In this document: positions 20,950 through 42,258 of the stretch, piece by piece
Layout: every line of letters starts with the position of its first letter
How positions within the stretch are numbered: position 1 is the stretch's first letter
Assembly (NCBI GenBank): GCA_033578915.1
Contig: JAVQWQ010000001.1
Location: 1 to 42,355 of the forward strand
Reading direction: 5' to 3'
From: Chitinophagales bacterium
GTDB lineage: Bacteria; Bacteroidota; Bacteroidia; Chitinophagales; LD1
Length of the DNA stretch: 42,355 bases
Program-made: the position numbers and the translations under genes
The notes under the pieces: generated by a model
The model's input: only the letters and a program-made list of their open reading frames with translations
What the model was told of the DNA's origin: nothing
Databases searched by the model: none

Positions 20950-20952
20950 TCA
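20950..20952 (-). other. Single in-frame TGA interrupting an otherwise continuous ~1716-codon reading frame (19102..24252)
   Basis: The minus strand reads ...GAA AGT GCA ACA TGA AAG CCG TGG GCA AGT ATT AAT TAC... The frame continues without a stop into ORF 20841..19102. Confidence 0.9.
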
Positions 20953-23900: not shown

Positions 23901-24252
23901 GTGCGCCTCTGGGCACATAGAGCAAACTATCTATTTCGCCCCTGTTGCGCACTCCAAAAAACTCGATAAAATCACCCTGGCCTAAGGCTGTGTTGTTGGA
24001 TATGTAAATAGGAACCTGTTGGCCATTGTGATACATCACAATATTAGCAGGGTTTATCATACTAATATTTGGAATCGCAGCAGCCAGAGTAGAATATGGG
24101 ATTCTGTATATTCCATCTTGCCACACCTTGATTTTAAAATGTGTGCGGTTGTAATCTATCCACTCGTTACCGTAATTCTGAGCCGCAACTCTGCAACAAA
24201 TTATTGCCAAAGCAATAGCTATGTAGCAAAAAATTCGGTTCAGGTTTTTCAT
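20950..24252 (-). CDS. Peptidase C25 (gingipain/PorU-like) family protein, N-terminal 1100 codons up to an in-frame TGA
   Basis: Signal peptide MKNLNRIFCYIAIALAIICCRVAAQ. C25-type core (PRYVLLLGKAREYP ... VPTFGYPGSD). Clan-CD catalytic dyad candidates FFGHSS (His codon 22315..22317) and IIISNGCLVG (Cys codon 22222..22224). Start overlaps the upstream porV-like stop by ATGA. Confidence 0.8.
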   Translation of the reverse strand: MKNLNRIFCYIAIALAIICCRVAAQNYGNEWIDYNRTHFKIKVWQDGIYRIPYSTLAAAIPNISMINPANIVMYHNGQQVPIYISNNTALGQGDFIEFFGVRNRGEIDSLLYVPRGAQPHPYYSLFTDTSVYFLTTSSSTNNRRLININNDLTNLPPKENFFMHPSLTVFLNSFFEGKVYYAGKDELSKSLYEEGEGWSGGWINSSPTETVTNIPTPFVYTGPGSPGTARFRFYHLSRSNSPHILTVKVNGQVVFNTSYAGWRQSKFEQQIPLGLIANGTTPVSYRFSDNSPGTQQNRIQLIEITYPRLFDFGGANFFRFQINAGPGRKYLDISNFNDNNSTLILYDITNGLRITSPAGSSKFALPPSSVNRDLILGSESIITNITAITPIEFKNYTALANQGNFVIISHPSLGVNDPKSQVEQYRLYRDVNGGFGGKFIAVTVDVEQLYDQFAYGISKHPLAIVNFIQYAVNNWSQNRKPRYVLLLGKAREYPDMRVSAAARNQCLVPTFGYPGSDILLACPIGSNIPSVAIGRLAAQTQDDIKVYLDKLKTYESLQAQYAPNQSIPEKEWMKQVLHFSGGTSATEQVILASYVNNWKRIIEDTSYGAKVTTFSKNSPAPIDQSQQQVVKSIINRGISLLTFFGHSSSNLGFDVSIDEPNNYTNYNRYPIIISNGCLVGFIHSASRNYSERFVIPRANENYQGLNTGAIAFLATTGLSLSASLNIYTTRIYENLARSFYTRSLGDIISKTMSDLNSCCSGDHFTMMVGYEFTLHGDPALTINQYPKPDYAIDNSSLYFNPSNITAASDTFEAKLIVTNLGKALPNTIRATLYRRVRDPQNPSNFLDLTYHVPLSRNYYKDTVTFRIPTLVPYGNSYIGYGANEFGAFIESEEKVDEMAEFNNRIPLGAIVTNIQSDDIIPIYPYEFAIVPKQGVTLKASTVNPFAPYRAYRFEIDTTELFNSPLRVSGVVAQKGGVVKFTPNIIMQDSTVYYWRVGIDSGGTGKNWHYSSFIYLANEYPGWNQSHHYQYLKDKFSLLNYDSDRLFRFPKTANQIDVQAGGGDPLAVSWYYNGVLMHRGRFINKLGYTNGLVFAVIESAT

Positions 24253-25349
24253 GGTTTCCTTTTGTTAATGTCAAGGCGAAGCGAGATTACATTGGAATAA
24301 AGTCCGGTAGAGCCAGTATTGTTACTGTTTAAAGTTGTAAGATTGGTTAAGGCATAATCAAGAGAAATCACTTTGATGTGCACACCTACACCCATACATG
24401 GCGATAATGAGAATGATTGTTTACCATCTTCGGCATAAATCCGTTGAAGATTATTAAAACCACCGCGTATATAACCGATATTGAACAAATTTAGTTCAAG
24501 GCCGGCATTAATATCCATACTGATAGGTTTAGCCGAGAGCAACACATTACGCCTGCCATCGGTACTGAAAATAAAATTAGCTTCAGGTAGGATAAAAAAT
24601 TTGTTTTTAATGGAAACTTTGTAAGCAAGTCCAAGATGAATATGAGGAACGGTAATTTCGGTAGTACTGGCCGGTAGCTGGTTATTGCTTTGCAGTAAAA
24701 CTCTTTTTTCTTCTTCGGTAAATGTAAAATCCCAGGCTGCAAACGTGGTGGTGATGTCGCGAAGCATAAGGCCGGCTTGCAGACCCTTCCAGCGATACTG
24801 AAGGCCTGCATCTATTCCAAAACCAAACGCTTTAGCAAAAGTTCCCACCTGCCGGTAAATAACTTTAGCGCTGCCACCAACTGTTAGCCCTTCTACGGGC
24901 AGTTTCTGCGCATAGTGAAACATAAATGCATAGTCTGCTACGGAAAAAGAGCGAATATTGTTGTAGTTGATACTATTGTCCGGGCCAATTAGAAACAAAG
25001 TATTTGGAATATCGTCCACACCGAAACGATAAAAAGAAATACCGATTACACTTTTTTTATCGCGAATAGGAACAGCAAAAGCTCCGAAATCCCACTTGGC
25101 AATACCGGCAAAATATTCAGTGTGCATGAAACCTAACTGAAAGGTATTTTGTATGCGAGCCAACCCTGCGGGATTGTAATACGCGCTGTAAACATCTTCA
25201 CATGAAGCTGCCTGGGCAGTACCCATAGCTAAACCCCTTGCACCTACACCAATGTTCAAAAACTCATTACTGTACTTTCGAACCGTTTGAGACATAGTGT
25301 AGTAGCACATACTGGTTGCAACAAGTATCAATAGGTAGGTTTTTGTCAT
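24249..25349 (-). CDS. PorV/PorQ-family outer-membrane beta-barrel (T9SS shuttle-like)
   Basis: 366 aa with a signal peptide. N-terminal signature NEFLNIGVGARGLAMGTAQAA..DVYSAYYNPAGLA, characteristic of PorV(LptO)/PorQ. Alternating beta-strand pattern to the C-terminus. Translationally coupled (ATGA) to the C25 peptidase gene. Confidence 0.7.
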   Translation of the reverse strand: MTKTYLLILVATSMCYYTMSQTVRKYSNEFLNIGVGARGLAMGTAQAASCEDVYSAYYNPAGLARIQNTFQLGFMHTEYFAGIAKWDFGAFAVPIRDKKSVIGISFYRFGVDDIPNTLFLIGPDNSINYNNIRSFSVADYAFMFHYAQKLPVEGLTVGGSAKVIYRQVGTFAKAFGFGIDAGLQYRWKGLQAGLMLRDITTTFAAWDFTFTEEEKRVLLQSNNQLPASTTEITVPHIHLGLAYKVSIKNKFFILPEANFIFSTDGRRNVLLSAKPISMDINAGLELNLFNIGYIRGGFNNLQRIYAEDGKQSFSLSPCMGVGVHIKVISLDYALTNLTTLNSNNTGSTGLYSNVISLRLDINKRKP

Positions 25350-26121: not shown

Positions 26122-29100
26122 ATGATGAATGCTTCTCAATATGATGAGCTTGTCGCAAAGCTCGATGCCTTTATTCGAAAATACTATCTGAATGAATTAA
26201 TCAGAGGAATAATTTTTACCTCTATTTATATTTTAGTATTGTTTCTCGCAATCAATGTTACGGAATATTATTTGTATCTGCCTTCGCTGTATCGAAAAAT
26301 TCTTTTTTACGGATTTATATTTTCTACGTTACTTTTTGCCTGCCGCTTCATTATTGTTCCACTCGTTCATTATTTCAGATTAGGCAAAATAATTTCTCAG
26401 GAAAGAGCGGCAGAGATTATAGGTAGTCATTTTGCAGAAGTAAGAGACAAACTCCTGAACATTCTTCAGTTGAAAAAGCTTTCTGAACAGAGCGAGTACG
26501 ATTTGCTTCGGGCAAGCATAGAACAAAAAATCAGCGAGATCAGGCCAATAAATTTTTCTTTGGCGATAGACCTGTCTAAAAACAAAAAATACCTTCGTTT
26601 TCTGCTGCCTCCTGCATTACTACTCCTTTTTATTGTTATCGCAGCCCCGCGCATGATAACCGAAAGTACAAAACGCCTCTATTACAATAACCGCGAATTT
26701 GAAAAACAAGCGCCATTTCGCTTTGTTATTCAAAACAAGTCTCTGAAAGTATTACAGTACTCAGATTTCGTACTCGAAGTAAAAACAGAAGGCAAGGCGC
26801 TGCCGTCAGAGGTATTCTTAGAAACAGACAAACAAACATTTAAAATGAAGAAAAAGCAAGGCAACCTCTTCTCCTTTGAATTTACATCAATAGAACGCCC
26901 GATTAATTTTCGCTTTTCCGCTGCGGGATTTAATTCTTCAACATACCAACTTGAAATAATTGAAAAGCCTTCGTTATTAAGTTTTGAAGTTCGCTGCGAT
27001 TATCCCGCCTACACCGGAAAATCTGACGAGACTCTAAAAAGCATGGGAGACCTTAGTGTTCCTCAAGGGACAAAACTCACGTGGCAAATAAAAACACGCA
27101 GCGCTACGGCTGTCAATGTTAATTTTGGAGATCTGGCAACTGCTACCGCGCGGCCAATATCTGAAAATAATTTTGTGTTTGACCATACCGCACGGCAACC
27201 GCTGCGTTATACAATTTATGTTGAAAACAACAACACCCGCACCTTTGACTCTGTTACGTACCAATTACACGTTATTCCTGATCTTTATCCAACTATAAGC
27301 GTTAGCGAGAAACGCGATTCCATCAATAAGGATTACTTCTACTACATAGGCGAAGCAGGTGATGATTACGGTATAAGAAACCTTGTCTTTCGTTATTTTA
27401 TAGAACGCGATGATTCCGCCACATATCCAAATGTACAACAGACAGTAAATGTGCCTATTCCTTCCGGCAGTAGTTCTGCGCGTTTCACACATTTCTGGAA
27501 TATAAAAGATATTGGCCTGAGGCCAGGAGACAACATGCGGTATTATTTTGAAGTTTGGGACAACGATGCCGTCAATGGCAGCAAGAGCACACGCTCGCAA
27601 ATGCTGCAATTTCAAATGCCTTCACAGCGCGCCATTGAGCAGGAAATAAACCGCCAGAGCGAAGACATTAAAAACACTCTTGCAAAATCTCTCAAAGAAG
27701 CAAAAGAACTAAAACAAAAAATGAAAGAATCGCAGGAGAAGCTCCTTGAGAAAAAAAATCTGAATTGGGAAGACAAGAAAAACCTGAGCGACCTTGCAGC
27801 CAAGCAGAAAAACCTGGAAGAGCAACTCAAGGAAATAAAAAATAAACTGAACGATGCTCTCAAAAAGCAAGATGAATTTTCTCCGGTGAGCGAGCAGCTA
27901 AAGCAAAAACAAGAAAAACTCAAAGAACTATTTGAAAGAGTCTTAGACGATGAAATAAAAAAACTATATGAAAAGCTGGAAAAGCTTCTTGAGGAATTGA
28001 ACAAGAAAGATGCATTGGAAAAAATGAGCGAAATGGAGATGAGCAATGAAAAACTTGAAAAAGAACTCGATCGGATGCTGGAGTTGTTCAAAAAACTGGA
28101 GTTTAACCGAAAACTCGAAGAAACAGCTAATAAGCTGGAACAACTTGCCAAAAAAGAAGAGGAACTGGCTAAGCAAACAGAGCAGCAAGGAGACAAATAT
28201 AACTCTTCTACACAGCAAAATGAAAAGGAAAAACAACAACTGGTAGAAGAACAAAAAAAGCTGGAACAGCAATTGAAAGATGCCAAACAAGATTTCGATG
28301 AATTGAAAAAACTTAACGAGGAGAGTAAGAGCGGACAGGACATGAAAGAGTCCGAGCAGAATATGGAAACCGCAGAAAAACAAATGGAGGAAGCACGCGA
28401 ACAGATACAGCAAAACCAAAACGATAAAGCTGCAAAAAATCAAAAAAGCGCTGCCAACAACCTGAAAAATGCTGCTCGCAAAATGAAAGACATGAAAATG
28501 AAAATGGAGCAGGATGCTTTGGCTGAAGACCTTCAGGCGCTCAGACAACTGCTGAAAAACATTATGCAACTTTCTTTTGAACAGGAAAAACTCATTGATG
28601 AACTAAAAGTTCTGAATATCAATACTCCCAGATATGTTCAACTCATGAAGGCACAGCAGCGCATACGCGAAAACTCCAAAATGGTAGAAGACAGTCTGTA
28701 TGCACTTGCCCGAAGGCAAATAAGCATTGAGAGCTTTGTTACAAAGGAAATGAACAACGTCAACCGTTATCTTGCCAAATCGCTCCAGCATCTGGAAGAA
28801 AGAAATGTTTCAAATGCATTGAGCGACCAGCAGTTTGTTATGACCGGTTATAATAACCTGGCTTTAATGCTTAGTGAAAGCCTGCAGAATTTGCAAATGC
28901 AGATGAGCGGCAGCGAAAGCGATCAGGAACAGAGCGGCAAACCCAACGCAGCTTGCAAAAAACCCGGTAAAAACAGCAAGGGCATTCCTAACCTTTCGCA
29001 AATGCAAAAGCAACTTAACGACAAAATCAATCAATTGAGCGAGATGATAAACAGGCAAGGACAGCAAGGCAATCGCGAATATCAACGTGAACTGAGCAAA

Positions 29101-29517
29101 CAGTTCAGCGAACTTGCTGCCAAACAGGCAGAACTGAGAAAAGCGCTCGAAAAACTTAATCAAGAACAAAATAAAGATGGAAAAAATTCTCTTGGCAACC
29201 TTGGCGAAGCAATAGATAAAATGAATCAGACTGAAACACAACTGGTAAATAAACAGCTTACCACAGAAATGCTTAAAAGACAGCAGGAGATCCTTACACG
29301 CTTGCTGGAAGCTGAAAATGCAATGCGGCAACGCGATGAGCAACCCGAACGCGAGAGCCGTACAGGACAGGATATGCCGCGAAAGTTGCCGCCCTCGCTG
29401 GAAGAATACCTGAAACAGCAACAGCAACAAGCCGATTTCCTCAAAGCCACTCCTGCAGAATTAAAGCCTTTCTATAAACAACTTTCTGAAATTTATTTCA
29501 GAGAACTGGCGCGCTAA
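26122..29517 (+). CDS. DUF4175-like membrane-anchored giant coiled-coil protein
   Basis: 1131 aa. N-terminal helix plus two TM helices (YDELVAKLDAFIRKYYLNELIRGIIF...), SHFAEVRDKLLNILQL motif, and a ~350 aa beta-rich domain. Then a ~600 aa K/E/Q-rich coiled coil (about 27620..29400). The family name is recalled, not searched. Confidence 0.6.
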   Translation: MMNASQYDELVAKLDAFIRKYYLNELIRGIIFTSIYILVLFLAINVTEYYLYLPSLYRKILFYGFIFSTLLFACRFIIVPLVHYFRLGKIISQERAAEIIGSHFAEVRDKLLNILQLKKLSEQSEYDLLRASIEQKISEIRPINFSLAIDLSKNKKYLRFLLPPALLLLFIVIAAPRMITESTKRLYYNNREFEKQAPFRFVIQNKSLKVLQYSDFVLEVKTEGKALPSEVFLETDKQTFKMKKKQGNLFSFEFTSIERPINFRFSAAGFNSSTYQLEIIEKPSLLSFEVRCDYPAYTGKSDETLKSMGDLSVPQGTKLTWQIKTRSATAVNVNFGDLATATARPISENNFVFDHTARQPLRYTIYVENNNTRTFDSVTYQLHVIPDLYPTISVSEKRDSINKDYFYYIGEAGDDYGIRNLVFRYFIERDDSATYPNVQQTVNVPIPSGSSSARFTHFWNIKDIGLRPGDNMRYYFEVWDNDAVNGSKSTRSQMLQFQMPSQRAIEQEINRQSEDIKNTLAKSLKEAKELKQKMKESQEKLLEKKNLNWEDKKNLSDLAAKQKNLEEQLKEIKNKLNDALKKQDEFSPVSEQLKQKQEKLKELFERVLDDEIKKLYEKLEKLLEELNKKDALEKMSEMEMSNEKLEKELDRMLELFKKLEFNRKLEETANKLEQLAKKEEELAKQTEQQGDKYNSSTQQNEKEKQQLVEEQKKLEQQLKDAKQDFDELKKLNEESKSGQDMKESEQNMETAEKQMEEAREQIQQNQNDKAAKNQKSAANNLKNAARKMKDMKMKMEQDALAEDLQALRQLLKNIMQLSFEQEKLIDELKVLNINTPRYVQLMKAQQRIRENSKMVEDSLYALARRQISIESFVTKEMNNVNRYLAKSLQHLEERNVSNALSDQQFVMTGYNNLALMLSESLQNLQMQMSGSESDQEQSGKPNAACKKPGKNSKGIPNLSQMQKQLNDKINQLSEMINRQGQQGNREYQRELSKQFSELAAKQAELRKALEKLNQEQNKDGKNSLGNLGEAIDKMNQTETQLVNKQLTTEMLKRQQEILTRLLEAENAMRQRDEQPERESRTGQDMPRKLPPSLEEYLKQQQQQADFLKATPAELKPFYKQLSEIYFRELAR

Positions 29518-31806: not shown

Positions 31807-33495
31807 ATGAAAAAATATCTATCGCTGATTTTTGTCTTACCCTTTGTTTCTGTTTATGCACAAAGCACTTTTACACAAATCTATCAAATCTTAAATACGC
31901 GTTGCACCAATAGCGCGTGCCATAGCGCAGCCTCGGGTCACAACCTTCGTTTTGACGGATCAGAGAATGATGTGTTTAATGCTATCTTCAATAAGCCACC
32001 GGAGAATACAGTTGCTAAAAATAAGCTCGACAGGTTGGTTTTTGTCAATCAACCCTATGAGAGTTTTCTGCTGCGCAAAATCAACAAAAACCTCGATACC
32101 GACTTAGACCTAGAGCAGGGAGAAGGAAATGTAATGCTTGATATCAACGGGCAACCTCTTGCCAACCATGAGGTTGAGTTAATTCGCCAGTGGATAATTA
32201 ATGGCGCAAAGAAAACCGGTATAACGGTGGACACTGCGGTTATAAATGAATATTACCGCGATCCCTATCATGCCTTTTTACAAAAACCTGTAAAACCAGC
32301 TCCCGGAGAAGGAAAACGCATACGCTGCGGGCCTATTTTCCTGCCAAAATCGGGGCCAGGCAAAGAGTTTGAGATTCTATTAAAGTATGAGCTGAATTTC
32401 CCCTACGAAGCAGAGATATATAAAATTGACGGTTTCATGAACTATGAGAGCCACCACTTCCTCCTTTTTAGATTTAATGATTCAGCTAGCGCGGCTCAAG
32501 AGCCAGATGGGATAAGAGTAGTAAGCCTTACCGGAGGTACCACATCTTTCGATGGTAATAAACAACTCACCGGCGCGTGGCAAGACGATGAAGAGATTGA
32601 TTTGCCTAAAGGGACAGCGCTGTTCTGGCCAAAGAAAGTCTGGTTAGACCTCAATTATCACATCAAAAACTACGGAAATCAACACGTGCTACCCTGCGAC
32701 TTTTACTGCAATATTTACTATACACCTAGACAGCCCAAAACCATTGAAATGAAAAGCAGATTAGTAAATAGCATAACGCTAGGGGAACTGGGAAGTGGCG
32801 GCAATCAAGGATTTTTACCGCCAAACTCCGGGCCGGTAACAAGATACCTCAACGACCCCGATAACGGAAGAAACGAAGTGCGCTATTTATGGATGTTTAA
32901 TTCCCATACTCATCAATACGGTATTGACTTTGACCTTTTCGAATACGATAAATCAAAACCTAACAGACTGGGTAAGCAGCTGTACGAAGGGTTCTGGAAT
33001 TATAAACTGAATTACGACATGGGGCAATATCTTTGGGATCATCCTCCTATTCGATACTGGCCTAATTTCTACCCTGTGGATATGAAAATCGGACTCCGCG
33101 CCCGAGCCATGTATAATAATACAAGCAATAAAGTGGTTCGCTTTGGATTTACGACAGAAGATGAAATGTTTTTATATTATTATATGTACACCACACGGCT
33201 TCCCGACGGATGGGTGAGTGCACCTGACATTGCTACTAAAATCAACTCGTTTGGCATATACCCAAATCCTGCCTCAGACAAAGCTTTTGTTATTGTAGAA
33301 TCTAAAGAACCTATTGATATCAAGGTTATGATATGCGACATACATGGAAAGGTTATCGCAGAGTTGTTCAGTGGACAAACACAGATTGGAGTAAACCAAT
33401 ATTCCATACCGGATAACCTGCCGCAAGGAGTATATCTCGCGCAGTTGTTTTTCAACGGCCAGATAGAAAATAAAAAATTTGTGATATCAAGATAA
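31807..33495 (+). CDS. Secreted copper type II monooxygenase (PHM/DBH)-like protein with N-terminal cytochrome-like C-x4-CH module and T9SS CTD
   Basis: 562 aa with a signal peptide. IYQILNTRCTNSACH (31903..31923) ... LIRQWIINGA. HH in ESHHFLLF (32452..32457). LNYHIKNYGNQH. HxH in NSHTHQYG (32905..32913). Met in TEDEMFLYYYMY (33166..33168). CTD IYPNPASDKAFV ... LPQGVYLAQLFF ... KFVISR (about 33253..33492). Confidence 0.6.
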   Translation: MKKYLSLIFVLPFVSVYAQSTFTQIYQILNTRCTNSACHSAASGHNLRFDGSENDVFNAIFNKPPENTVAKNKLDRLVFVNQPYESFLLRKINKNLDTDLDLEQGEGNVMLDINGQPLANHEVELIRQWIINGAKKTGITVDTAVINEYYRDPYHAFLQKPVKPAPGEGKRIRCGPIFLPKSGPGKEFEILLKYELNFPYEAEIYKIDGFMNYESHHFLLFRFNDSASAAQEPDGIRVVSLTGGTTSFDGNKQLTGAWQDDEEIDLPKGTALFWPKKVWLDLNYHIKNYGNQHVLPCDFYCNIYYTPRQPKTIEMKSRLVNSITLGELGSGGNQGFLPPNSGPVTRYLNDPDNGRNEVRYLWMFNSHTHQYGIDFDLFEYDKSKPNRLGKQLYEGFWNYKLNYDMGQYLWDHPPIRYWPNFYPVDMKIGLRARAMYNNTSNKVVRFGFTTEDEMFLYYYMYTTRLPDGWVSAPDIATKINSFGIYPNPASDKAFVIVESKEPIDIKVMICDIHGKVIAELFSGQTQIGVNQYSIPDNLPQGVYLAQLFFNGQIENKKFVISR

Positions 33496-34995
33496 GTGGG
33501 CTGTTCAGATAAAATTAAAAAGTTCACCCTTTGCGAGTCGCTTCTAATTAATCGCTTATATCAGATAACACTTATTCAATTATGCTTGTGGTGTTGTGCG
33601 CCAGTTTTTTTGCTGTCACAACCTTTTATCAACGGGCCTGAATTGATTGGTTGTTATCCAAACAGTGAATGGATATACTCTATTCCTGTTGTGGCAAAAG
33701 GTAAAAAGAAATTTTCTTCAACCAACTTACCCGGCAAGCTGCAATTAGATACTGCTAATGGCATAATTCGCGGTGTTGCGCCCGAGGCGGGTCGCTACCT
33801 AATTCCAATAAGCGTTTCAGACGACTTTGGTTCTGCTGTTGATACGCTCACACTTATCTGTGGCAATAAACTGGCACTAACCCCTCCTATGGGTTGGAAT
33901 AGTTGGAATGTTTTTGCTCATGAGGTAAATGAAAAGATCATCATCGAAATGGCCGATGCCATGATAGCCAGTGGAATGAAAGATGCCGGTTATCAATACA
34001 TCAATATTGATGATTTCTGGCAGGCCGCACAACGCGCAACCGATGGAACTCCCTTGGCCAACCCAGAGAAATTTCCAAATGGGATAAAATATCTTGCAGA
34101 CTACCTTCACAGCAAAGGGTTGAAGTTAGGCTTGTATTCATGTGCAGGTAAATATACTTGCGGCAAACGTTTCGGCAGTTTCGGCTATGAGGAAATAGAT
34201 GCAAAAACCTACGCCGCATGGGGAGTTGACCTGCTGAAATACGACTATTGCTATGCGCCATGGGCAAGAAAAAAAGCTATTAAAAGATACCGCGCTATGG
34301 CAGAAGCATTGCAAAAAACAGGCAGAAGCATCGTCTTTAGCGTATGTGAGTGGGGTTTAAGAAAACCATGGAAATGGGCCTCTGAAATTGGAGGACACTA
34401 CTGGCGCACCACTCCGGATATTTTCGACAAATGGAAGGGAAATCATATTTGGCGCTACAGTATGATGCAAATTCTCCGCAAACAAAGAGGCCTTGAACGC
34501 TATGCGCGCCCAGGTGGCTGGAATGACCCCGACATGCTTTTGGTAGGGAACTACGGCAAAGGTATAGCCACTTCTGCTAAAGGAAGGTACAAGGGAATGA
34601 CCGACACAGAATATGAAAGCCACTTTGCTATCTGGTGTATGTTAAGTGCCCCATTGTTGGCAAGTTGTGACCTTCGGAACATGAATGAAGCTACACGAAA
34701 AATTTTACTCAACACAAAACTTATTTCCATTAATCAGGATGTGGCTGGCAATCAAGCGGTTTGCATAAGCCGAAAGAAAGGGATTTGGATTTATCGAAAA
34801 CCTCTCTCAAAAGGAATTGCTTATGCCTTCCTGAACACACGAGGTTCAAAAAAATACTTTACCATCCCTTATCCTATACAGAAAGAAATAAATGCACAAA
34901 CAGAAAAGATTCTCAACGCAGAGCAAATTCAAAATATAACTAAACCTTTGGCATTGGAGGGCCATCAAACCATGGTAATAATTGCGCATCCATAA
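33496..34995 (+). CDS. Glycoside hydrolase family 27 alpha-galactosidase with N-terminal Ig-like (He_PIG-type) domain
   Basis: 499 aa. LTPPMGWNSWNVF, YQYINIDDFW, GLKLGLYSCAG, LLKYDYC, FSVCEWG, WNDPDML are GH27 blocks. N-terminal NLPGKLQLDTANGIIRGVAPEAGRYLIPISVSD is an Ig-like module. Only a GTG start (33496) is available, directly abutting the upstream TAA. Confidence 0.9.
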   Translation: MGCSDKIKKFTLCESLLINRLYQITLIQLCLWCCAPVFLLSQPFINGPELIGCYPNSEWIYSIPVVAKGKKKFSSTNLPGKLQLDTANGIIRGVAPEAGRYLIPISVSDDFGSAVDTLTLICGNKLALTPPMGWNSWNVFAHEVNEKIIIEMADAMIASGMKDAGYQYINIDDFWQAAQRATDGTPLANPEKFPNGIKYLADYLHSKGLKLGLYSCAGKYTCGKRFGSFGYEEIDAKTYAAWGVDLLKYDYCYAPWARKKAIKRYRAMAEALQKTGRSIVFSVCEWGLRKPWKWASEIGGHYWRTTPDIFDKWKGNHIWRYSMMQILRKQRGLERYARPGGWNDPDMLLVGNYGKGIATSAKGRYKGMTDTEYESHFAIWCMLSAPLLASCDLRNMNEATRKILLNTKLISINQDVAGNQAVCISRKKGIWIYRKPLSKGIAYAFLNTRGSKKYFTIPYPIQKEINAQTEKILNAEQIQNITKPLALEGHQTMVIIAHP

Positions 34996-35013: not shown

Positions 35014-35541
35014 ATGTCGAGAGGAATTTTTATTGTATTGATACTTCTTTTTTGCATTAACATAAAGGCTCAAAACAAATCGCTGAGTGAGAAGATATTA
35101 GGTGAAAAAAAATTACCGGCAGTATCGCTCAGCGATATCCATGGAAAAAAAGTTAATGTGGCCGATTACGGCCAAAATGGCCAGATGGTAGTATTGAGTT
35201 TTTGGGCTACATGGTGTGTCCCCTGCAAAAAAGAACTGAATAACCTTAACGAGTTGTATGAAGATTGGAAGAAAAATTACAATGTTAAAATTGTTGCCGT
35301 TTCTATTGACGATTCGCGGAGCAGCAGCAAAGTAAAACCCTTTGCAGATAGCCAGCGATGGGAATTTGATGTGTTACTTGACCCTAACCAGGATTTAAAA
35401 AGAGAACTGAATATTCAGACTATCCCATTTACACTGCTTCTCGATAAAAAAGGAAAAATTGTTTATACCCATACAGGCTACATAGAAGGAGATGAGCTTG
35501 TTCTGGAAGAAGAGATAAAGAAACATTATCAGGTTGATTGA
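35014..35541 (+). CDS. TlpA/ResA-like periplasmic thiol:disulfide oxidoreductase (thioredoxin fold)
   Basis: 175 aa with a signal peptide. Active site WATWCVPCKKE (CxxC). AhpC/TSA-redoxin-type layout. Confidence 0.88.
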   Translation: MSRGIFIVLILLFCINIKAQNKSLSEKILGEKKLPAVSLSDIHGKKVNVADYGQNGQMVVLSFWATWCVPCKKELNNLNELYEDWKKNYNVKIVAVSIDDSRSSSKVKPFADSQRWEFDVLLDPNQDLKRELNIQTIPFTLLLDKKGKIVYTHTGYIEGDELVLEEEIKKHYQVD

Positions 35542-36650: not shown

Positions 36651-37022
36651 TTAGAATACGTTCAACAGTTGCCGCATGGCATTCCAACTGTCGCCTTCCA
36701 GCGTAAACGCTATAATAGCCCAAACTAAAAACAGAAAGGGCAACAGCACCGTCATTTTAAAACCCTTGGTTTCATGTCCAAGGTGCATGAAAACACCCAT
36801 GATGTACCATACCTTAACTACCGAGGCAATAGCCATGAAAATATTGATAAAAATCTTACCCTGCCCGTCCGGAAAAAAATGATCATAAATCATTGCCACA
36901 CCCACTTCAACCACAGTAACAATCGTTAATATAATAATTGTCTTCCATACAGAAGCCCTACCTTCTTTGTATTCTGACTCACTCCAATGCAGATGGCCTT
37001 CGCTGGGAACTTCAAAACTCAT
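36651..37022 (-). CDS. Cytochrome c oxidase subunit IV (prokaryotic COX4 family)
   Basis: 123 aa. Three TM helices (VWKTIIILTIVTVVEVGVAMIY, FMAIASVVKVWYIMGVFMHL, LLPFLFLVWAIIAF). Last gene of the cox operon. Confidence 0.75.
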   Translation of the reverse strand: MSFEVPSEGHLHWSESEYKEGRASVWKTIIILTIVTVVEVGVAMIYDHFFPDGQGKIFINIFMAIASVVKVWYIMGVFMHLGHETKGFKMTVLLPFLFLVWAIIAFTLEGDSWNAMRQLLNVF

Positions 37023-37052
37023 GATGTAAACTTTTTATAGTTAAAAAATATT

Positions 37053-37748
37053 TTACAACAGATAAAAACACAAAAATACATAAACCCAGACCAAATCTAC
37101 AAAATGCCAGTAAAGTCCAATCTTTTCAACCATTTCGTAGTGGCCCACCTTTTCAAAACGTCCATTGATAGTGGCAATAAGCAGCCATGTTAAAAGAATG
37201 ACACCCCCAAGCACATGCAGGCCATGGAACCCGGTTATAACAAAAAACAACTGGCCAAAATTGACCACTTTAGTGGTTGGGGATGCAGTTGTGGCCGTCA
37301 TTCCTTCGTGAATCAGGTGCGTCCATTCTAAATACTGGCAGAATAAGAATAGTGCGCCACAAGCAGCGGTAGGAATAATAAATTTCACTACTCCCCACTT
37401 ATTCATCAGATAGCCTTCTTGTACCGCACGCACCATCGTATAAGAACTAACGATGAGCAGGAAGGTCATAAAGCTAACAAAGACGAGTGGAGCTTTCACT
37501 CCGTGAAATATGTCAAGCGGAATGGAACTAAACACTTCTGCCGGCTTGGGCCAATTGTCTGCTAGCGTAAAGCGCAGAGCGCCATAGGTAATAAGTAAGC
37601 ATGCAAAGGTGAAAGTGTCGCTGATTAAAAAATACCACATCATTATTTTACCATATCCGGCTTTGAAAGGACTGCGGCCGCCTTTCCAGAGTTCCTGTTC
37701 GGTTTCTTTTACATGCCCGGTTGAATGTTCAATGGTAGCTGTTGCCAT
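37053..37748 (-). CDS. Heme-copper oxidase subunit III
   Basis: 231 aa polytopic protein. ITGFHGLHVLGGVILL and YWHFVDLVWVYVF are subunit III signatures. Confidence 0.9.
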   Translation of the reverse strand: MATATIEHSTGHVKETEQELWKGGRSPFKAGYGKIMMWYFLISDTFTFACLLITYGALRFTLADNWPKPAEVFSSIPLDIFHGVKAPLVFVSFMTFLLIVSSYTMVRAVQEGYLMNKWGVVKFIIPTAACGALFLFCQYLEWTHLIHEGMTATTASPTTKVVNFGQLFFVITGFHGLHVLGGVILLTWLLIATINGRFEKVGHYEMVEKIGLYWHFVDLVWVYVFLCFYLL

Positions 37749-37758
37749 GACGATTTTT

Positions 37759-38391
37759 TTATTGATAATTTAAGTAAAAAAATATATATAAGTAAATCCA
37801 GACTATATCAATATAATGCCAGAAAGTTACAAGCATTTCAAGATTAAAAATGCGTTTTGGATTTGCGATATTTCTTAATTCATAAATCGGGTCTTTGCGT
37901 GCGCGTATGGCATTTACGAGAAATACAAGGGTTACAATCAATGCACCGATAATATGTAATCCATGCATGGAGGTAATCAGATAAATAAATGAGCCTGAAA
38001 GATTGCCGTCTATCGGCATTCCACTTGCCGTAAGAATTTGCCAGCCTCTCCACTGCAAAAATAAAAACAGGCATGCGGAAAGAGTTCCTCCAAAAAGCAG
38101 CCACCTGAATGTTGCAAAATTTGATTTTCTGTAATGGATTAAACTTAGGTGCATGAATAAGCTAACTGCTAAAACAGCCATTGTGCTGTATAGAAAAATA
38201 CCTGGCAGCTTAAAGTTTTCCCAGTTTTGTACATCAGCCTTTTTTACAATGAGTGCGGATGTCAGTGCTGCAAAGAACATGGTCATGCTGGCCATAGCCA
38301 GCCATAAAGCAAACTTTTGCGGATGGATACCCGTGTATTCTATACGTTGTTTTAAGATTTCTTTATCTTTCCACGTGTAGTCCATAGCCAT
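37759..38391 (-). CDS. Heme-copper oxidase subunit III paralogue
   Basis: 210 aa. ITSMHGLHIIGALIV and FWHYIDIVWIYLYIF. Confidence 0.88.
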   Translation of the reverse strand: MAMDYTWKDKEILKQRIEYTGIHPQKFALWLAMASMTMFFAALTSALIVKKADVQNWENFKLPGIFLYSTMAVLAVSLFMHLSLIHYRKSNFATFRWLLFGGTLSACLFLFLQWRGWQILTASGMPIDGNLSGSFIYLITSMHGLHIIGALIVTLVFLVNAIRARKDPIYELRNIANPKRIFNLEMLVTFWHYIDIVWIYLYIFFYLNYQ

Positions 38392-38396
38392 AGTGC

Positions 38397-39332
38397 TTAA
38401 AAAGTTTTATCAATTAACATAGCCAGTTGCACTACCGGTAAATATGCAAATGAACCAAGCATAAGTTTTCGTGCAGACTGGTCATCGCAGCGTATCCATA
38501 ACTGCAAAGATTGAACAAAAAACATTACTCCCATAAATATCACAACTAAAGCTCCTGCCAATCCTATCCAACCTAAATAGTAGGGAATAATCGACAGTAC
38601 TAATAATGTAAAAGAATATAAAACATTTTGAAAGGCAGAAAATTTGTCTTTACCATTGGATGATGGCAAAAGCATAATATTGGCTTTTAGATAATCATCG
38701 TATTGAACCCATGCGATAGACCAGAAATGAGGAAACTGCCACAAAAACTGGATTCCAAAAAGGACAAGAGCAATTAGGTCAAGCTCTCCTGTGGCGCACA
38801 CATAACCGATTCCTATCGGCAGCGCGCCCGGAATGGCTCCCACAAGAACAGCTATGGAATGTACTCTTTTTAAAGGAGTGTAAATAAAAGCATAGCTTAA
38901 TAAGGATATAGACGCGAGGACACCGGCAGTAGCATTAAAAGTTTGCCACAGCAGAATAATACCTCCCACACCTAAAACCCCGGCGATAACGAGCGCTTCT
39001 ATGTTAGCCATTCTTCCGGCGGCTAAGGGGCGATTGCAGGTGCGGGTCATTAGTTTGTCAATATCTTTTTCTAGTATCTGATTAATGGCATTAGATGCTC
39101 CTGTAATGGCGATACCTCCAACAATTAACCAAAAAAGGTGACTTAAGGGGTACGACCCTTTAACACCTGTTAAAAATCCGACAGCCGCTGAAAAAACAAC
39201 CAACAGTGTCAGGCGAAACTTTATGAGTTCAAGGTAGTCTTGTATTTTTAAAGATATGCGAGCACTGAGGGCATGTGAAGCCGCCCCTGATACAACTGAA
39301 CCTGAAACTTGGTTACTTGTGTTCAACTTCAC
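38397..39332 (-). CDS. cyoE: Protoheme IX farnesyltransferase (heme O synthase)
   Basis: 311 aa. UbiA-family motifs NQILEKDIDKLMTRTCNRPL and polytopic layout. The only starts available are GTG 39332 or TTG 39326, both overlapping the end of coxI (stop 39313..39315). Confidence 0.9.
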   Translation of the reverse strand: MKLNTSNQVSGSVVSGAASHALSARISLKIQDYLELIKFRLTLLVVFSAAVGFLTGVKGSYPLSHLFWLIVGGIAITGASNAINQILEKDIDKLMTRTCNRPLAAGRMANIEALVIAGVLGVGGIILLWQTFNATAGVLASISLLSYAFIYTPLKRVHSIAVLVGAIPGALPIGIGYVCATGELDLIALVLFGIQFLWQFPHFWSIAWVQYDDYLKANIMLLPSSNGKDKFSAFQNVLYSFTLLVLSIIPYYLGWIGLAGALVVIFMGVMFFVQSLQLWIRCDDQSARKLMLGSFAYLPVVQLAMLIDKTF

Positions 39333-41136
39333 CGGCTTTTAAAGGTTCTGTTTGAGGAATAAAATCGCGTCCGTTGACATTATAGTCATAAGGCCAGCGA
39401 TGAACAGTAGGAATTTCTCCAGGCCAGTTGCCATGCAGGCGCTCTACAGGCGCTGTCCATTCTAGTGTGGTACCGCCCCATGGATTGCAGACCTCTCCTT
39501 CCACCTTTCTTCCTCTGAAGATGCTGTAGAAGAAATTGACTATAAAGAGTATCTGAGCTAAAAATACTACTATTGCAGAGACAGAAATAAATACGACCAG
39601 GCTATCGAAGTTGTTGAAAGTCTCAAAGTTTGCAAATGAATAGTATCTGCGGGGTAGCCCGGTCATAAAGTGCATGGGGAAGAATATCGCATAACCTCCT
39701 ATGAGTGTAACCCAGAAATGAATCAGGCCAAGGGTTTCATTCATAAACCTGCCAAAGAAGCGAGGGAACCAGTGGTAAACCCCGGCATACATTCCAAAGA
39801 AAGCAGCCACACCCATTACAATATGGAAGTGAGCTACCACGAAGTAAGTGTCATGCAATTGTATATCTATGGCAGAGTTACCTAGCATAATTCCGGTTAA
39901 GCCTCCAGTGATAAACAAGGAAACAAACCCTATAGCAAACATCATGGGAGTGTTGAGGCGAAGTGAGCCTTTCCAGATAGTACCTATCCAGTTAAATACT
40001 TTAATAGCAGAGGGTACGGCTATCAGCAGCGTAAATAAAACAAATACAGCGCCAAGATTTGGATTCATACCGGTTACAAACATGTGGTGCGCCCACACCA
40101 GGAAAGAAATAACGACAATGGCCATAATTGAAATTACCATGGCACGATAGCCAAAAATCGGCTTACGCGAATGTACACTCAAAACTTCAGACACTATTCC
40201 CATGGCAGGGAGAATGATGATGTAAACTTCTGGGTGTCCTAAAAACCAGAAGAGATGTTGATACAGTATTGGCGAACCTCCTTTATAATCAAGCAAATTA
40301 CCATTAATAATAATATCGTTGAGATAAAATGAAGTCCCTAAGAGGCGGTCGAACTCAAGCAGCGCAACACCAGCTAGCAGAGCAGGGAATGAAAGAATAC
40401 CCAAAACTGCAGTGAATAAAAATGCCCAGATGGTCAAAGGCATTTTCATCATCGTCATGCCTTTGGTGCGCATATTCAAGATAGTAGCTACATAATTAAG
40501 ACCACCTAAGAGCGATGAAACGATAAAAAGTGACATGGAAATTGCCCAAAGATCAAAACCTATTCCAGAACCTTTATTTATAGAAATATCATTTATACCA
40601 TTCAAAGGAGGATAAGCTGTCCAGCCACCGGAAGCAGCGCCTGTTTGGACAAAGAAAGAAGCAAACATCACAACAGATGCAGCAAAGAAAAACCAATAGG
40701 AAAGCATATTGATAAATCCAGAAGCCATGTCGCGCACACCTAGTTGATAAGGTATAAGCAAGTTGGCGAATGTACCACTAAGGCCTCCTGTAAGAACAAA
40801 GAATACAAGAATAGTGCCGTGCATGGTTACGAGAGAGTAATAAAATTCATTTGATATTTTTCCTCCCTCTGCCCAACGGCCGAAAAGTGTTTCCAGGAAA
40901 GGAAATGTTTCATTGGGCCAACCAAGTTGTAAACGAAATATAACTGACAGCAATCCACCCACAACTCCCCAAAACATTCCCGTGATTAGAAATTGTTTGG
41001 ATATAATTTTGTGGTCTTTGCTGAAAACATATTTCTCCAACCACGATTCTTCATGATGATGCCCATGATCATGGTGAGTATGTGCACCATTGTGCTGGTG
41101 TGTGCTTACTTCTACATGTGTGACTGACGTTTGCAT
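39313..41136 (-). CDS. ctaD: Cytochrome c oxidase subunit I
   Basis: 607 aa. WFLGHPEVYIIILP, VWAHHMF, HDTYFVVAHFHIVM are the canonical heme a/a3-CuB ligand blocks. His-rich N-terminal tail THQHNGAHTHHDHGHHHEE (41050..41103). Confidence 0.97.
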   Translation of the reverse strand: MQTSVTHVEVSTHQHNGAHTHHDHGHHHEESWLEKYVFSKDHKIISKQFLITGMFWGVVGGLLSVIFRLQLGWPNETFPFLETLFGRWAEGGKISNEFYYSLVTMHGTILVFFVLTGGLSGTFANLLIPYQLGVRDMASGFINMLSYWFFFAASVVMFASFFVQTGAASGGWTAYPPLNGINDISINKGSGIGFDLWAISMSLFIVSSLLGGLNYVATILNMRTKGMTMMKMPLTIWAFLFTAVLGILSFPALLAGVALLEFDRLLGTSFYLNDIIINGNLLDYKGGSPILYQHLFWFLGHPEVYIIILPAMGIVSEVLSVHSRKPIFGYRAMVISIMAIVVISFLVWAHHMFVTGMNPNLGAVFVLFTLLIAVPSAIKVFNWIGTIWKGSLRLNTPMMFAIGFVSLFITGGLTGIMLGNSAIDIQLHDTYFVVAHFHIVMGVAAFFGMYAGVYHWFPRFFGRFMNETLGLIHFWVTLIGGYAIFFPMHFMTGLPRRYYSFANFETFNNFDSLVVFISVSAIVVFLAQILFIVNFFYSIFRGRKVEGEVCNPWGGTTLEWTAPVERLHGNWPGEIPTVHRWPYDYNVNGRDFIPQTEPLKAGEVEHK

Positions 41137-41163
41137 AGGACTCTTTTTTATTTTATAGAAGAA

Positions 41164-42258
41164 TTAATTTTTTGTCAACATGGCCTGTGCTTTATTTTCA
41201 GACTTATTTTCCTCAGATGCAAGCGTTGGCTTAACTACAGTTTCGTAGTATGAAGCCTGTTCTTTAAACCACTCATCATATTCTTTTTGTTCAACAACTA
41301 TCACATCTTTTTGCATAGCATAGTGAGAACGTCCGCAAAGTTCAGTGCAAGCTAATTCGTATTTAAATGTTTCCCAGCGCGGCTTGCCGGTTTCAGGATT
41401 TATTTGTTGCCACCACGGTTGAGTTTTCAAATATTCTTGCATCTCTTTGGTGGTCATAGTTGGCACAAAATAGAATTGAGTGGGTAACCCAGGCACACAG
41501 TCCATTTTAACGCGAAAATGAGGGAGGTAAAAGCTATGAATCACATCAAGTGCTCCGAGTTTAACAAGCACAGGCCTGTTTTTTACCAAATAAATTTTAT
41601 CTGCAAAAAAATCATCATGGCTTTTCTCATCTTTCCAATTTATTCCCAACTCGTTTTCTGGCTTAACATGCTCTTTATCAATAATTCTCTCGCCAAAAGC
41701 GCCATCTTTTCCGGGGTAACGTACAGACCATTGAAACTGTTTGGCTACCACTTCAATCACCATCATGTTTTTGGTATCGCGCTTACTTACATCAAAAATG
41801 TTGAACCAAACTCGCATCCCTAAAACAACAAGAATAGTCATCACCACGGCAGGTATAACTGTCCACACCACTTCAAGCTTGTTGTTGTGAGGATAGAAAT
41901 AAGATTCTTTATTGTTTGCTTCGTTGTAGCGGTATGCAAACCAAAAGAGTGCTACCTGGGTCAACACAAAGACAATTACTAAAAAAAACAAGGTTATATA
42001 GAAAAGATTATCTGTTTGAACTCCATGCAGCGAAGCGGCTTTGGGAATCATAACAGGAATAAACTTTTTAGACGCCCAGGCAATACCGGCAAACAATAAG
42101 AATAAAAAAGCTAATGAATAATACCCATTCCTCTTACTGGCTTTAGTCGTGTCTTTATCCTCACCATTCAAGACCATAGCCAGCTCAGATGCTTTAGCTA
42201 TGTAAACAAGCACCACAAAGAGAAGTACAAGTATTACTGTTGAAATTAAAATGGTCAT
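41164..42258 (-). CDS. coxB: Cytochrome c oxidase subunit II (CuA-containing, no fused cytochrome c domain)
   Basis: 364 aa. Three hydrophobic helices in the N-terminal ~150 aa. Cupredoxin domain with DVIHSFYLPHF and the CuA motif CTELCGRSHYAM. No CxxCH anywhere. Confidence 0.95.
   Translation of the reverse strand: MTILISTVILVLLFVVLVYIAKASELAMVLNGEDKDTTKASKRNGYYSLAFLFLLFAGIAWASKKFIPVMIPKAASLHGVQTDNLFYITLFFLVIVFVLTQVALFWFAYRYNEANNKESYFYPHNNKLEVVWTVIPAVVMTILVVLGMRVWFNIFDVSKRDTKNMMVIEVVAKQFQWSVRYPGKDGAFGERIIDKEHVKPENELGINWKDEKSHDDFFADKIYLVKNRPVLVKLGALDVIHSFYLPHFRVKMDCVPGLPTQFYFVPTMTTKEMQEYLKTQPWWQQINPETGKPRWETFKYELACTELCGRSHYAMQKDVIVVEQKEYDEWFKEQASYYETVVKPTLASEENKSENKAQAMLTKN

Follow-up and report, generated by a model that had tools for sequence, protein, structure and literature searches.

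The analysed open reading frame, located in a 42,355-nucleotide stretch of DNA from a Chitinophagales bacterium (assembly GCA_033578915.1, contig JAVQWQ010000001.1; the window), encodes a predicted secreted Bacteroidota protein of 562 amino acids, in which a putative cytochrome-c-type haem domain is joined to a distant bacterial relative of the two-copper enzymes that make noradrenaline and amidated peptide hormones. This combination is widespread in Bacteroidota genomes, but is not recognised by the standard family databases and has no known substrate. A 100%-identical protein is annotated only as 'T9SS type A sorting domain-containing protein [Chitinophagales bacterium]'. The initial annotation, which had described a T9SS-secreted protein with the copper-ligand set of PHM and DBH fused to a cytochrome-like C-x4-CH module, is confirmed with respect to the sequence features and supported with respect to their interpretation, with the exception of a glycan or glycopeptide substrate hinted at by the abutting GH27 gene.

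Domain organization

The protein is composed of a signal peptide, a haem-c-type domain, a PHM-like two-domain core, a linker and a C-terminal T9SS sorting domain (Table 1). The N-terminus (MKKYLSLIFVLPFVSVYA|Q) reads as a Sec signal peptide. This assignment was made from the sequence itself, but is in line with a pLDDT below 50 for residues 1–17 in the AlphaFold model and with the A-Q boundary shared by homologues. At the opposite end, residues 484–560 match Pfam PF18962 (36.3 bits, cut-off 27; E 7e-9) and TIGR04183 (43.8 bits, cut-off 23; E 1.9e-11), and the family profile hits solved structures of T9SS C-terminal domains. Genes for the T9SS components PorU2 (726 bits, cut-off 450) and PorV2 (440 bits, cut-off 325) as well as a second T9SS cargo are found in the same window.

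The distribution of conserved residues indicates that the ligand motifs do not occur by chance. Of the 12 histidines in the protein, exactly seven (His39, His216, His217, His285, His367, His369 and His412) are conserved to 87–100%, while the remaining five reach at most 11%. The latter include His293, the second histidine in LNYHIKNYGNQH, which was therefore rejected as a ligand. Of the six cysteines, only Cys33 and Cys38 are conserved.

Table 1. Positions of the predicted features within the window.
Feature	Position	Strand	Residues	Assignment
Complete ORF	31807..33495	+	562 aa plus stop	Signal peptide, haem-c-type domain, PHM-like core, linker, T9SS tail
Signal peptide	31807..31860	+	1-18	Sec signal peptide, read from the sequence
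N-terminal domain	31861..32286	+	19-160	All-alpha, monohaem cytochrome-c-type domain (PSCyt1-related)
C33-x4-C38-H39	31903..31923	+	33-39	Putative covalent haem-c attachment motif with the proximal His
M110	32134..32136	+	110	Candidate distal axial haem ligand
CuH-type domain	32299..32736	+	approximately 165-310	Beta-sandwich; boundary from the alignment to the PHM 198/199 boundary
H216-H217	32452..32457	+	216-217	Equivalent to PHM H107/H108 (CuH)
H285	32659..32661	+	285	Equivalent to PHM H172 (CuH)
CuM-type domain	32737..33210	+	approximately 311-468	Beta-sandwich
H367-T-H369	32905..32913	+	367-369	Equivalent to PHM H242/H244 (CuM)
H412 (WDHPP)	33040..33042	+	412	Conserved family-specific His, role unknown
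M454	33166..33168	+	454	Equivalent to PHM M314 (CuM)
T9SS sorting domain	33256..33492	+	484-562	Type-A C-terminal sorting domain
PorU2 and PorV2	20950-25349	-		T9SS machinery
Second T9SS cargo	12577-14775			T9SS cargo

The predicted core resembles PHM and DBH

The AlphaFold model of the full-length protein (pLDDT 87.3, pTM 0.76) displays a core of two β-sandwiches. In a Foldseek search of the PDB, the top 31 hits are all PHM or DBH, with E-values from 8e-13 to 3e-8, about 310–330 aligned columns and TM-scores of 0.52–0.65 on PHM. In contrast, curated models do not recognise the core. PF03712 scores only 16.4 bits against a cut-off of 23, over the Met region alone (residues 430–464), similar sub-threshold hits are obtained for 27 of 46 relatives, and no hit to PF01082 was found. 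Likewise, searches of PDB sequences with the protein and with the family profile detected nothing beyond T9SS C-terminal domains, and thus no PHM or DBH. Taken literally, the absence of a significant hit to the copper monooxygenase models fulfils one of the refutation criteria set by the initial annotation. However, this is overruled by comparisons of higher sensitivity. While alignment against a single PHM sequence with hhalign gave the right register but an E-value of only 0.05, alignment of the close family against a profile of 30 true PHMs was significant (E 5.9e-6), and the core of the 121-member wider family aligned with PHM over 260 columns with a probability of 96.7% and an E-value of 3.6e-10.

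In both profile-profile alignments, all six proposed ligands are column-for-column equivalent to those of PHM. The CuH ligands are matched in the registers ESHHFLLF/TVHHMLLF and LNYH/LQVH, and the CuM ligands in SHTHQYG/VHTHHLG and TTEDEM/TSSDEM. The six residues are invariant in 46 sequences down to 40% identity. Among 121 wider relatives, His216-His217 is conserved in 117, His285 in 116, His367/His369 in 115 and Met454 in 115, whereas the neighbouring Glu453 is found in 120. All six ligands are kept in 114 of the 121, and the exceptions lose them together or by triad, as in the relative P0253, which keeps the three CuH histidines but has lost HxH and Met. His412 is found in 100% of the close homologues and in 87% of the wider family, but has no conserved counterpart in the PHM alignment.

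The N-terminal domain is related to PSCyt1 cytochromes

The isolated N-terminal domain is predicted (pLDDT 87.7, pTM 0.84) to consist of six helices, and 741 representatives were detected in a library of 1.84 billion proteins. Direct Pfam scans gave no PF07635 (PSCyt1) hit, only weak Cytochrome_CBB3 hits were obtained in relatives, and a search of PDB sequences with the domain was negative. A fold search with the domain alone yielded no significant match either, the best hits being haem domains at E 0.6 (hydrazine synthase, TM 0.43) and E 3.8. At profile level, however, homology to PSCyt1 is detectable. Alignment of the close family with PF07635 proteins gave an E-value of 2.5e-4 at a probability of only 43%, while the profile of the diverse wider family reached a probability of 96.5% and an E-value of 9.2e-10, with both cysteines, the histidine and the axial methionine in register.

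The motif C33-TNSA-C38-H39 deviates from the canonical CxxCH, and C-x4-CH is present in 118 of 118 close homologues with an intact N-terminus. In the 121 wider relatives, the same columns carry CXnCH with n = 2 (40), 3 (26), 4 (51) or 6 (3), and CX4CH is an accepted haem-binding variant in other cytochromes (PMC10734462). Met110 aligns with the invariant methionine of the PSCyt1 motif QMPP. Within the consensus EGxxMP, methionine is found in 106 of 121 relatives and is replaced by His in one subclade and by Cys in 5 of 121 and in the sequence P0002, although the window protein itself has ML instead of MP.

Genomic context

The next gene encodes a GH27 protein (Melibiase_2, E 3e-70), which had been taken as a hint at glycan or glycopeptide substrates. 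This suggestion is not supported, since the adjacency holds only in a 74%-identical relative, is gone at 56% identity and below, and was absent in a survey of 80 genome loci. Clustering of 702 ORFs from these loci revealed only clade-specific neighbours (a LuxC-like reductase with Ddl, an EamA transporter and an HMA-like lipoprotein), and no conserved partner gene points to a substrate or an electron donor.

Proposed mode of action and alternative interpretations

The evidence is most readily explained, with moderate confidence, by a three-module extracytoplasmic redox enzyme. In this model, which infers haem and copper occupancy, the direction of electron flow and the monooxygenase chemistry, haem is attached covalently to Cys33 and Cys38 in the periplasm after Sec export, with His39 and Met110 as axial ligands, likely by the system-II CcsBA that Bacteroidota use. 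Maturation of a C-x4-CH motif by system II does not, however, appear to be documented. Two copper ions load into the PHM/DBH-type core, with His216/His217/His285 forming the electron-transfer site CuH and His367/His369/Met454 the O2-activating site CuM. The folded holo-protein is then taken across the outer membrane by the type IX secretion system and is either released or anchored on the cell surface. During catalysis, the haem-c domain would accept single electrons from an external donor and pass them to CuH, thereby doing the job of ascorbate in PHM and DBH, although an electron source for a haem outside the outer membrane is not identified. CuH would reduce CuM, where O2 is activated to hydroxylate a C-H bond of an extracellular substrate. 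This substrate is not a C-terminal glycine peptide, since the carboxylate anchors Arg240 and Asn316 of PHM are replaced.

The non-canonical spacing of the haem motif, together with the lack of a Pfam cytochrome hit for the window protein and of a significant fold match to solved cytochromes, leaves room for an N-terminal domain without haem. Cys33, Cys38 and His39, with or without Met110, could instead form a disulfide or a metal site, as Cys/Cys/His/Met is also a plausible Cu(I) ligand set reminiscent of Sco- and CopC-type sites, and the domain might act as a structural cap, a copper-loading module or a substrate-binding module. This appears unlikely in view of the canonical CxxCH and the Cx3CH in the same columns of relatives, the profile homology to PSCyt1 and the Met/His/Cys alternation at one loop position, which is the pattern expected of an axial haem ligand. 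Similarly unlikely is a haem-copper redox protein which is not a C-H hydroxylase and whose PHM-like sites serve electron transfer only, for example in the reduction of O2 to H2O2 or water, in detoxification of reactive oxygen species or in electron exchange with extracellular metals. The lack of a conserved substrate-related neighbour and of the PHM substrate anchors would be in line with this view, as would degenerate paralogues which keep the haem but drop the copper, showing that the haem domain has a function of its own. However, the full His3 plus His2Met set is retained together with Glu453, which is the signature of the O2-activating, H-abstracting noncoupled binuclear site, and characterised members of this fold with this ligand set all seem to be monooxygenases (PMC4846438).

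A non-catalytic or non-metal member of the PHM/PNGase F superfamily, such as a glycan- or peptide-binding module or a glycoamidase displayed next to GH27, is very improbable. A PNGase was found by Foldseek at rank 32 (E 9e-7), and the GH27 adjacency is conserved in one close relative, but the PHM and DBH hits are about six orders of magnitude better and cover both domains, and the metal ligands are invariant in close homologues.

If the proposed model holds, the family could provide a bacterial, disulfide-free model system for PHM, DBH and TBH, the noncoupled binuclear copper monooxygenases, in which electron transfer from CuH to CuM and the coupling of the reductant to turnover are still debated and of which all characterised members are eukaryotic, glycosylated, disulfide-rich and ascorbate-dependent. 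The redox state of a built-in haem c could be followed spectroscopically, so that electron delivery to CuH could be triggered and timed. The chemistry of T9SS cargo would be extended beyond hydrolases and adhesins to O2-activating metalloenzymes, and an unrecognised oxidative function would be present in soil, freshwater and wastewater communities, since the family comprises hundreds of 50%-identity clusters in environmental Bacteroidota (Chitinophagales, Sphingobacteriales, Flavobacteriales), all currently annotated only as 'T9SS sorting domain-containing protein'. Moreover, the CXnCH series at one homologous haem site is useful for studying the tolerance of system-II cytochrome-c maturation. 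A more speculative and rather unlikely possibility is that the self-contained enzyme attacks extracellular polymers or recalcitrant organic matter at the cell surface, which would make it a functional counterpart of the fungal pair of cellobiose dehydrogenase and LPMO built from unrelated parts, and possibly the first described T9SS-exported c-type cytochrome enzyme. No bacterial cytochrome-c-PHM fusion was found in the literature, although the collection searched was incomplete.

Comparison with known systems

The cellobiose dehydrogenase cytochrome domain working with LPMOs is a functional analogy only, in that a secreted haem domain feeds single electrons to a histidine-ligated copper oxygenase acting outside the cell (PMC7078924). 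There is no homology, since LPMOs contain one Cu in a histidine brace and the cytochrome domain binds haem b in a DOMON fold, and no polysaccharide link was found for the present protein, in which the putative haem is c-type and fused in cis to a PHM-fold core.

The match between the N-terminal domain and PSCyt1 (PF07635) is collinear over 88 columns, covering the first Cys, the Cys-His, L-x-L-D, P-x-x-S-x-L, the axial M-P and the C-terminal W-(I/V)-x-x-G-A-P helix. Differences are the two-residue insertion in the haem motif, a longer loop before the axial Met, the occurrence in Bacteroidota and the fusion to a copper monooxygenase-like core rather than to the domains which usually seem to accompany PSCyt1 (DUF1549/DUF1553).

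DBH (PDB 4ZEL), of the group with TBH and MOXD1, is the best single Foldseek hit (E 7.8e-13) and contains the same ligand set (His262/His263/His333 and His412/His414/Met487; PMC4846438). Like the protein described here, it has an extra N-terminal domain ahead of the CuH domain. This DOMON domain has the fold of the haem-binding cytochrome domain of cellobiose dehydrogenase, but is a β-sandwich with no haem ligands or pocket (PMC4846438), while the N-terminal domain of the window protein is predicted to be all-α, with a covalent-haem motif and an axial Met. In addition, the window protein lacks a dimerisation domain and belongs to a group of prokaryotic proteins with T9SS sorting signals.

PHM (PDB 1PHM, 1SDW) shares the two-β-sandwich core, the order, similar spacing and alignment columns of the CuH and CuM ligands and the (D/E)-E-M motif, and the equivalent of Tyr318 (Tyr458) is largely kept. 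Sequence identity, however, is only 16–18%, the disulfide cysteines of PHM have no counterparts, and Arg240 and Asn316 align with the variable Asn365 (S/T/A/N) and the invariant Leu456, respectively. In contrast to PHM, the bacterial protein carries a T9SS sorting domain, an N-terminal haem-c-type domain and the extra conserved residues His412 and Met315, and has no PAL partner domain.

Sequence features and direct profile searches

The open reading frame is real and encodes a 562-aa protein. The N-terminus, judged by eye, is a typical Sec signal peptide (MKKYLSLIFVLPFVSVYA|Q). It is followed by the motif C33-TNSA-C38-H39 and, further downstream, by H216-H217 (ESHHFLLF), H285 (LNYHIKNY), H367-T-H369 (NSHTHQYG) and M454 (TEDEMFLYYYMY). 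Residues 484–560 form a T9SS type-A sorting domain, which scores above the curated thresholds of both Pfam (PF18962, 36.3 bits, cut-off 27) and NCBIfam (TIGR04183, 43.8 bits, cut-off 23). An identical protein exists in public data, where it is annotated only as 'T9SS type A sorting domain-containing protein [Chitinophagales bacterium]'.

In contrast to the sorting domain, the remaining part of the protein is largely missed by direct HMM searches. Of the three Pfam families proposed in the initial annotation (Cu2_monooxygen, Cu2_monoox_C and PSCyt1), only PF03712 gives a hit, which is limited to the Met motif (residues 430–464) and reaches 16.4 bits against a cut-off of 23, while PF01082 and PF07635 do not hit at all. 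Among 46 homologues, 27 show the same sub-threshold PF03712 hit and none passes. Sequence searches of the PDB, either with the single protein or with the family profile, find only T9SS tails. Taken literally, this outcome therefore counts against a copper monooxygenase by one of the criteria that the initial annotation had set. The relationship lies beyond ordinary HMM reach.

Predicted fold and ligand register of the core

An AlphaFold2 model built on a 46-sequence alignment is confident, with a mean pLDDT of 87.3 and a pTM of 0.76. In a Foldseek search of the PDB, the top 31 matches are all PHM or DBH, with E-values from 8e-13 to 3e-8 and about 310–330 aligned columns, which is essentially the whole PHM catalytic core. 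The TM-score normalised to PHM is 0.52–0.65 at a sequence identity of 13–18%. The next match, a PNGase from the same superfold, is six orders of magnitude weaker.

In order to establish the residue register, the authentic PHM core sequence was recovered from the PDB, 30 true PHMs carrying both Pfam domains were collected, and profile-profile alignments were calculated. Alignment of the close family with PHM gives an E-value of 5.9e-6 over 212 columns, and the core profile of a 121-member wider family gives a probability of 96.7% and an E-value of 3.6e-10 over 260 columns spanning both domains. The register is the same in all alignments: H216/H217 and H285 correspond to the CuH ligands H107/H108 and H172 of PHM, whereas H367/H369 and M454 correspond to the CuM ligands H242/H244 and M314. 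In DBH, these ligand sets are represented by H262/H263/H333 and H412/H414/M487 (PMC4846438).

Conservation of the putative copper ligands

All six ligands are invariant in 46 homologues down to about 40% identity. Moreover, conservation is bimodal. Of the 12 His residues of the protein, seven are 87–100% conserved, namely the five Cu-site histidines, H39 and H412, while the other five are at most 11% conserved. Of the 6 Cys residues, only C33 and C38 are conserved. H412 (100% in close and 87% in wider relatives) and M315 (100% and 95%) have no conserved counterpart in the PHM family and are candidates for an electron relay, an extra metal contact or substrate binding.

In 121 representatives of the wider family (28–44% identity), 114 keep all six ligands. 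The seven exceptions lose them together or by site: three have none of the six, and the relative P0253 keeps the CuH triad but has lost the entire CuM triad. All seven still keep the haem Cys/Cys/His/Met. This all-or-none pattern is independent evolutionary evidence for two three-residue functional units, which can be separated from the N-terminal module. The paralogues P0248, P0274, P0286, P0303, P0360 and P0253 keep the haem set and the whole PHM-like fold but have lost either all six copper ligands or the whole CuM triad. Four of them (P0248, P0274, P0286 and P0303) are long, with 814–1050 aa, and the two that were scanned (P0248 and P0274) carry Ig/PKD/fn3/SprB repeats, whereas P0253 and P0360 have about 540 aa. 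These paralogues may be haem-only surface proteins derived from the enzyme.

Remote homology of the N-terminal domain to PSCyt1

On its own, the N-terminal domain (residues 19–160) is modelled confidently as six helices (pLDDT 87.7, pTM 0.84). However, it has no Pfam hit and no significant structural neighbour, the best being a hydrazine synthase haem domain (E 0.6, TM 0.43) and a reaction-centre cytochrome c (E 3.8). Nevertheless, three lines of evidence identify it as a cytochrome-c-type module with an expanded haem motif.

An exhaustive HMMER search of 1.84 billion representatives found 741 proteins with this domain, nearly all of the same architecture. In an alignment of 121 of them, the Cys...Cys-His block occupies the same columns but with variable spacing, which is CxxCH in 40, Cx3CH in 26, Cx4CH in 51 and Cx6CH in 3 sequences. 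The C-x4-CH found here is thus a spacer variant of a canonical haem-c attachment site. In addition, the residue aligned with M110 lies in the family consensus 'EGxxMP', the usual signature of an axial Met, and is Met in 106 of 121 sequences. Within the close family it is replaced by His in one subclade ('E.DxxAH'). It is replaced by Cys in the 77% identical homologue P0002 and in five wider relatives, P0254, P0291, P0306, P0307 and P0353 ('EGDVCLD', 'EGxxCP'). These are exactly the residues that can ligate haem iron, and if haem is bound, His/Cys ligation would give a very different redox potential.

Finally, profile-profile comparison with real PF07635 proteins gives an E-value of 2.5e-4 (probability 43%) for the close family and an E-value of 9.2e-10 (probability 96.5%) for the wider family, with both Cys, the His, the Met and the C-terminal 'W-I-x-x-G-A' helix in register. 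CxxCH-bearing relatives also give sub-threshold Cytochrome_CBB3 hits spanning the domain. The PSCyt1-like character proposed in the initial annotation is therefore right at the level of remote homology, although the domain is not a member by Pfam's criterion.

Genomic context

Positions of the gene, its conserved motifs and the neighbouring features in the window, and of one feature in a related locus
Feature	Position	Strand
T9SS type-A cargo with FG-GAP repeats	12577-14775	+
PorU2 and PorV2 in tandem, with an adjacent 578-aa ORF	20950-25349, and 19102-20841	-
1131-aa DUF4175 protein	26122-29517	+
ComEC	upstream of the gene	+
Haem-c-type and PHM-like protein (this gene)	31807-33495	+
C33-x4-C38-H39	31903-31923
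M315	32749-32751
H412	33040-33042
Junction of the stop codon with a possible GTG start of GH27	33493-33498
GH27 alpha-galactosidase	start abuts the stop codon	+
Secreted ResA/TlpA/CcmG-like thiol-disulfide oxidoreductase	35014-35541	+
Unknown ORF	next	+
aa3-type cytochrome c oxidase gene cluster	36651-42258	-
HMA-like lipoprotein in L069, a Flavobacteriales locus of the survey	2115-2570	-

PorU2 (putative second T9SS sortase; NF052324, 726 bits) and PorV2 (NF052325, 440 bits), paralogues of the T9SS sortase and shuttle, are located 7–11 kb upstream of the gene. The organism therefore has T9SS components. The adjacent ORF matches only the C-terminal part of the PorU model, and together this looks like a paralogous T9SS sorting module close to several T9SS cargo genes. 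Two other envelope proteins, the FG-GAP cargo and the DUF4175 protein, which has a long, charged region that looks like a coiled coil, are unrelated to the finding. The oxidase cluster comprises COX2, COX1, haem O synthase (UbiA family), two COX3-like genes and COX4_pro and shows that the organism is aerobic and handles haem and copper cofactors in the envelope. Next to this cluster and two genes downstream of the target lies the thiol-disulfide oxidoreductase. Proteins of this class reduce apocytochrome-c and Cu-site cysteines, but since the adjacency is not conserved in other family loci, no link is claimed.

The GH27 ORF can start directly after the stop codon of the target without an intergenic gap, which suggests co-transcription in this lineage. 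The same gene order is seen in L005, the locus of a 74%-identical relative, there with a 20-nt gap, but GH27 is absent at 56% identity and below. None of the neighbours is conserved with the family. In 80 loci from species-representative genomes, all Bacteroidota and nearly all MAGs of Chitinophagales, Sphingobacteriales and Flavobacteriales, clustering of 702 neighbouring ORFs found only clade-specific neighbours. Among these, a lipoprotein of about 145 aa with a 'GMMCPSGCAAAI' motif resembling a heavy-metal-associated domain is situated about 1.2 kb upstream of the family gene in 10 loci of a Flavobacteriales clade (L069 and the equivalent position in nine others, L070–L087). It could be a copper chaperone or could simply reflect clade synteny. 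The enzyme behaves as a stand-alone gene, and the hint at glycan or glycopeptide substrates that the initial annotation had drawn from the abutting GH27 gene is not supported.

Proposed mode of action

The combination of a Sec signal, a haem-c-type domain, a PHM-type CuH/CuM core and a T9SS tail suggests how the protein most likely works. Haem would be attached in the periplasm, where Bacteroidota use system II CcsBA (PMC13645880), assuming that this system tolerates C-x4-CH. After copper loading, the folded protein would be exported by T9SS. The haem may then take single electrons from an external donor and relay them to CuH in place of ascorbate, whereupon CuM would activate O2 and hydroxylate a C-H bond. 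The substrate is not a glycine-extended peptide, since R240 of PHM aligns with a variable Ser/Thr/Ala/Asn position and N316 with an invariant Leu, although the Y318 equivalent is kept. Longer family members add only Ig, PKD or fn3 spacers, and none adds a recognisable substrate-binding module.

Comparison with PHM and DBH

The protein is a remote homologue of PHM and DBH and most likely works like them. However, it is not a member by the criteria of the curated models and lacks their disulfides as well as the PHM substrate anchors. Within the incomplete body of literature searched, no description of a cytochrome-c-PHM-like fusion or of a T9SS-secreted PHM-like enzyme was found. The nearest architectural parallel is DBH, in which the catalytic core is preceded by a DOMON domain with the fold of the haem-binding CDH cytochrome domain, although in DBH this domain lacks haem ligands (PMC4846438). 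Here, this position is held by an unrelated, all-alpha c-type cytochrome domain, which keeps its putative haem ligands.
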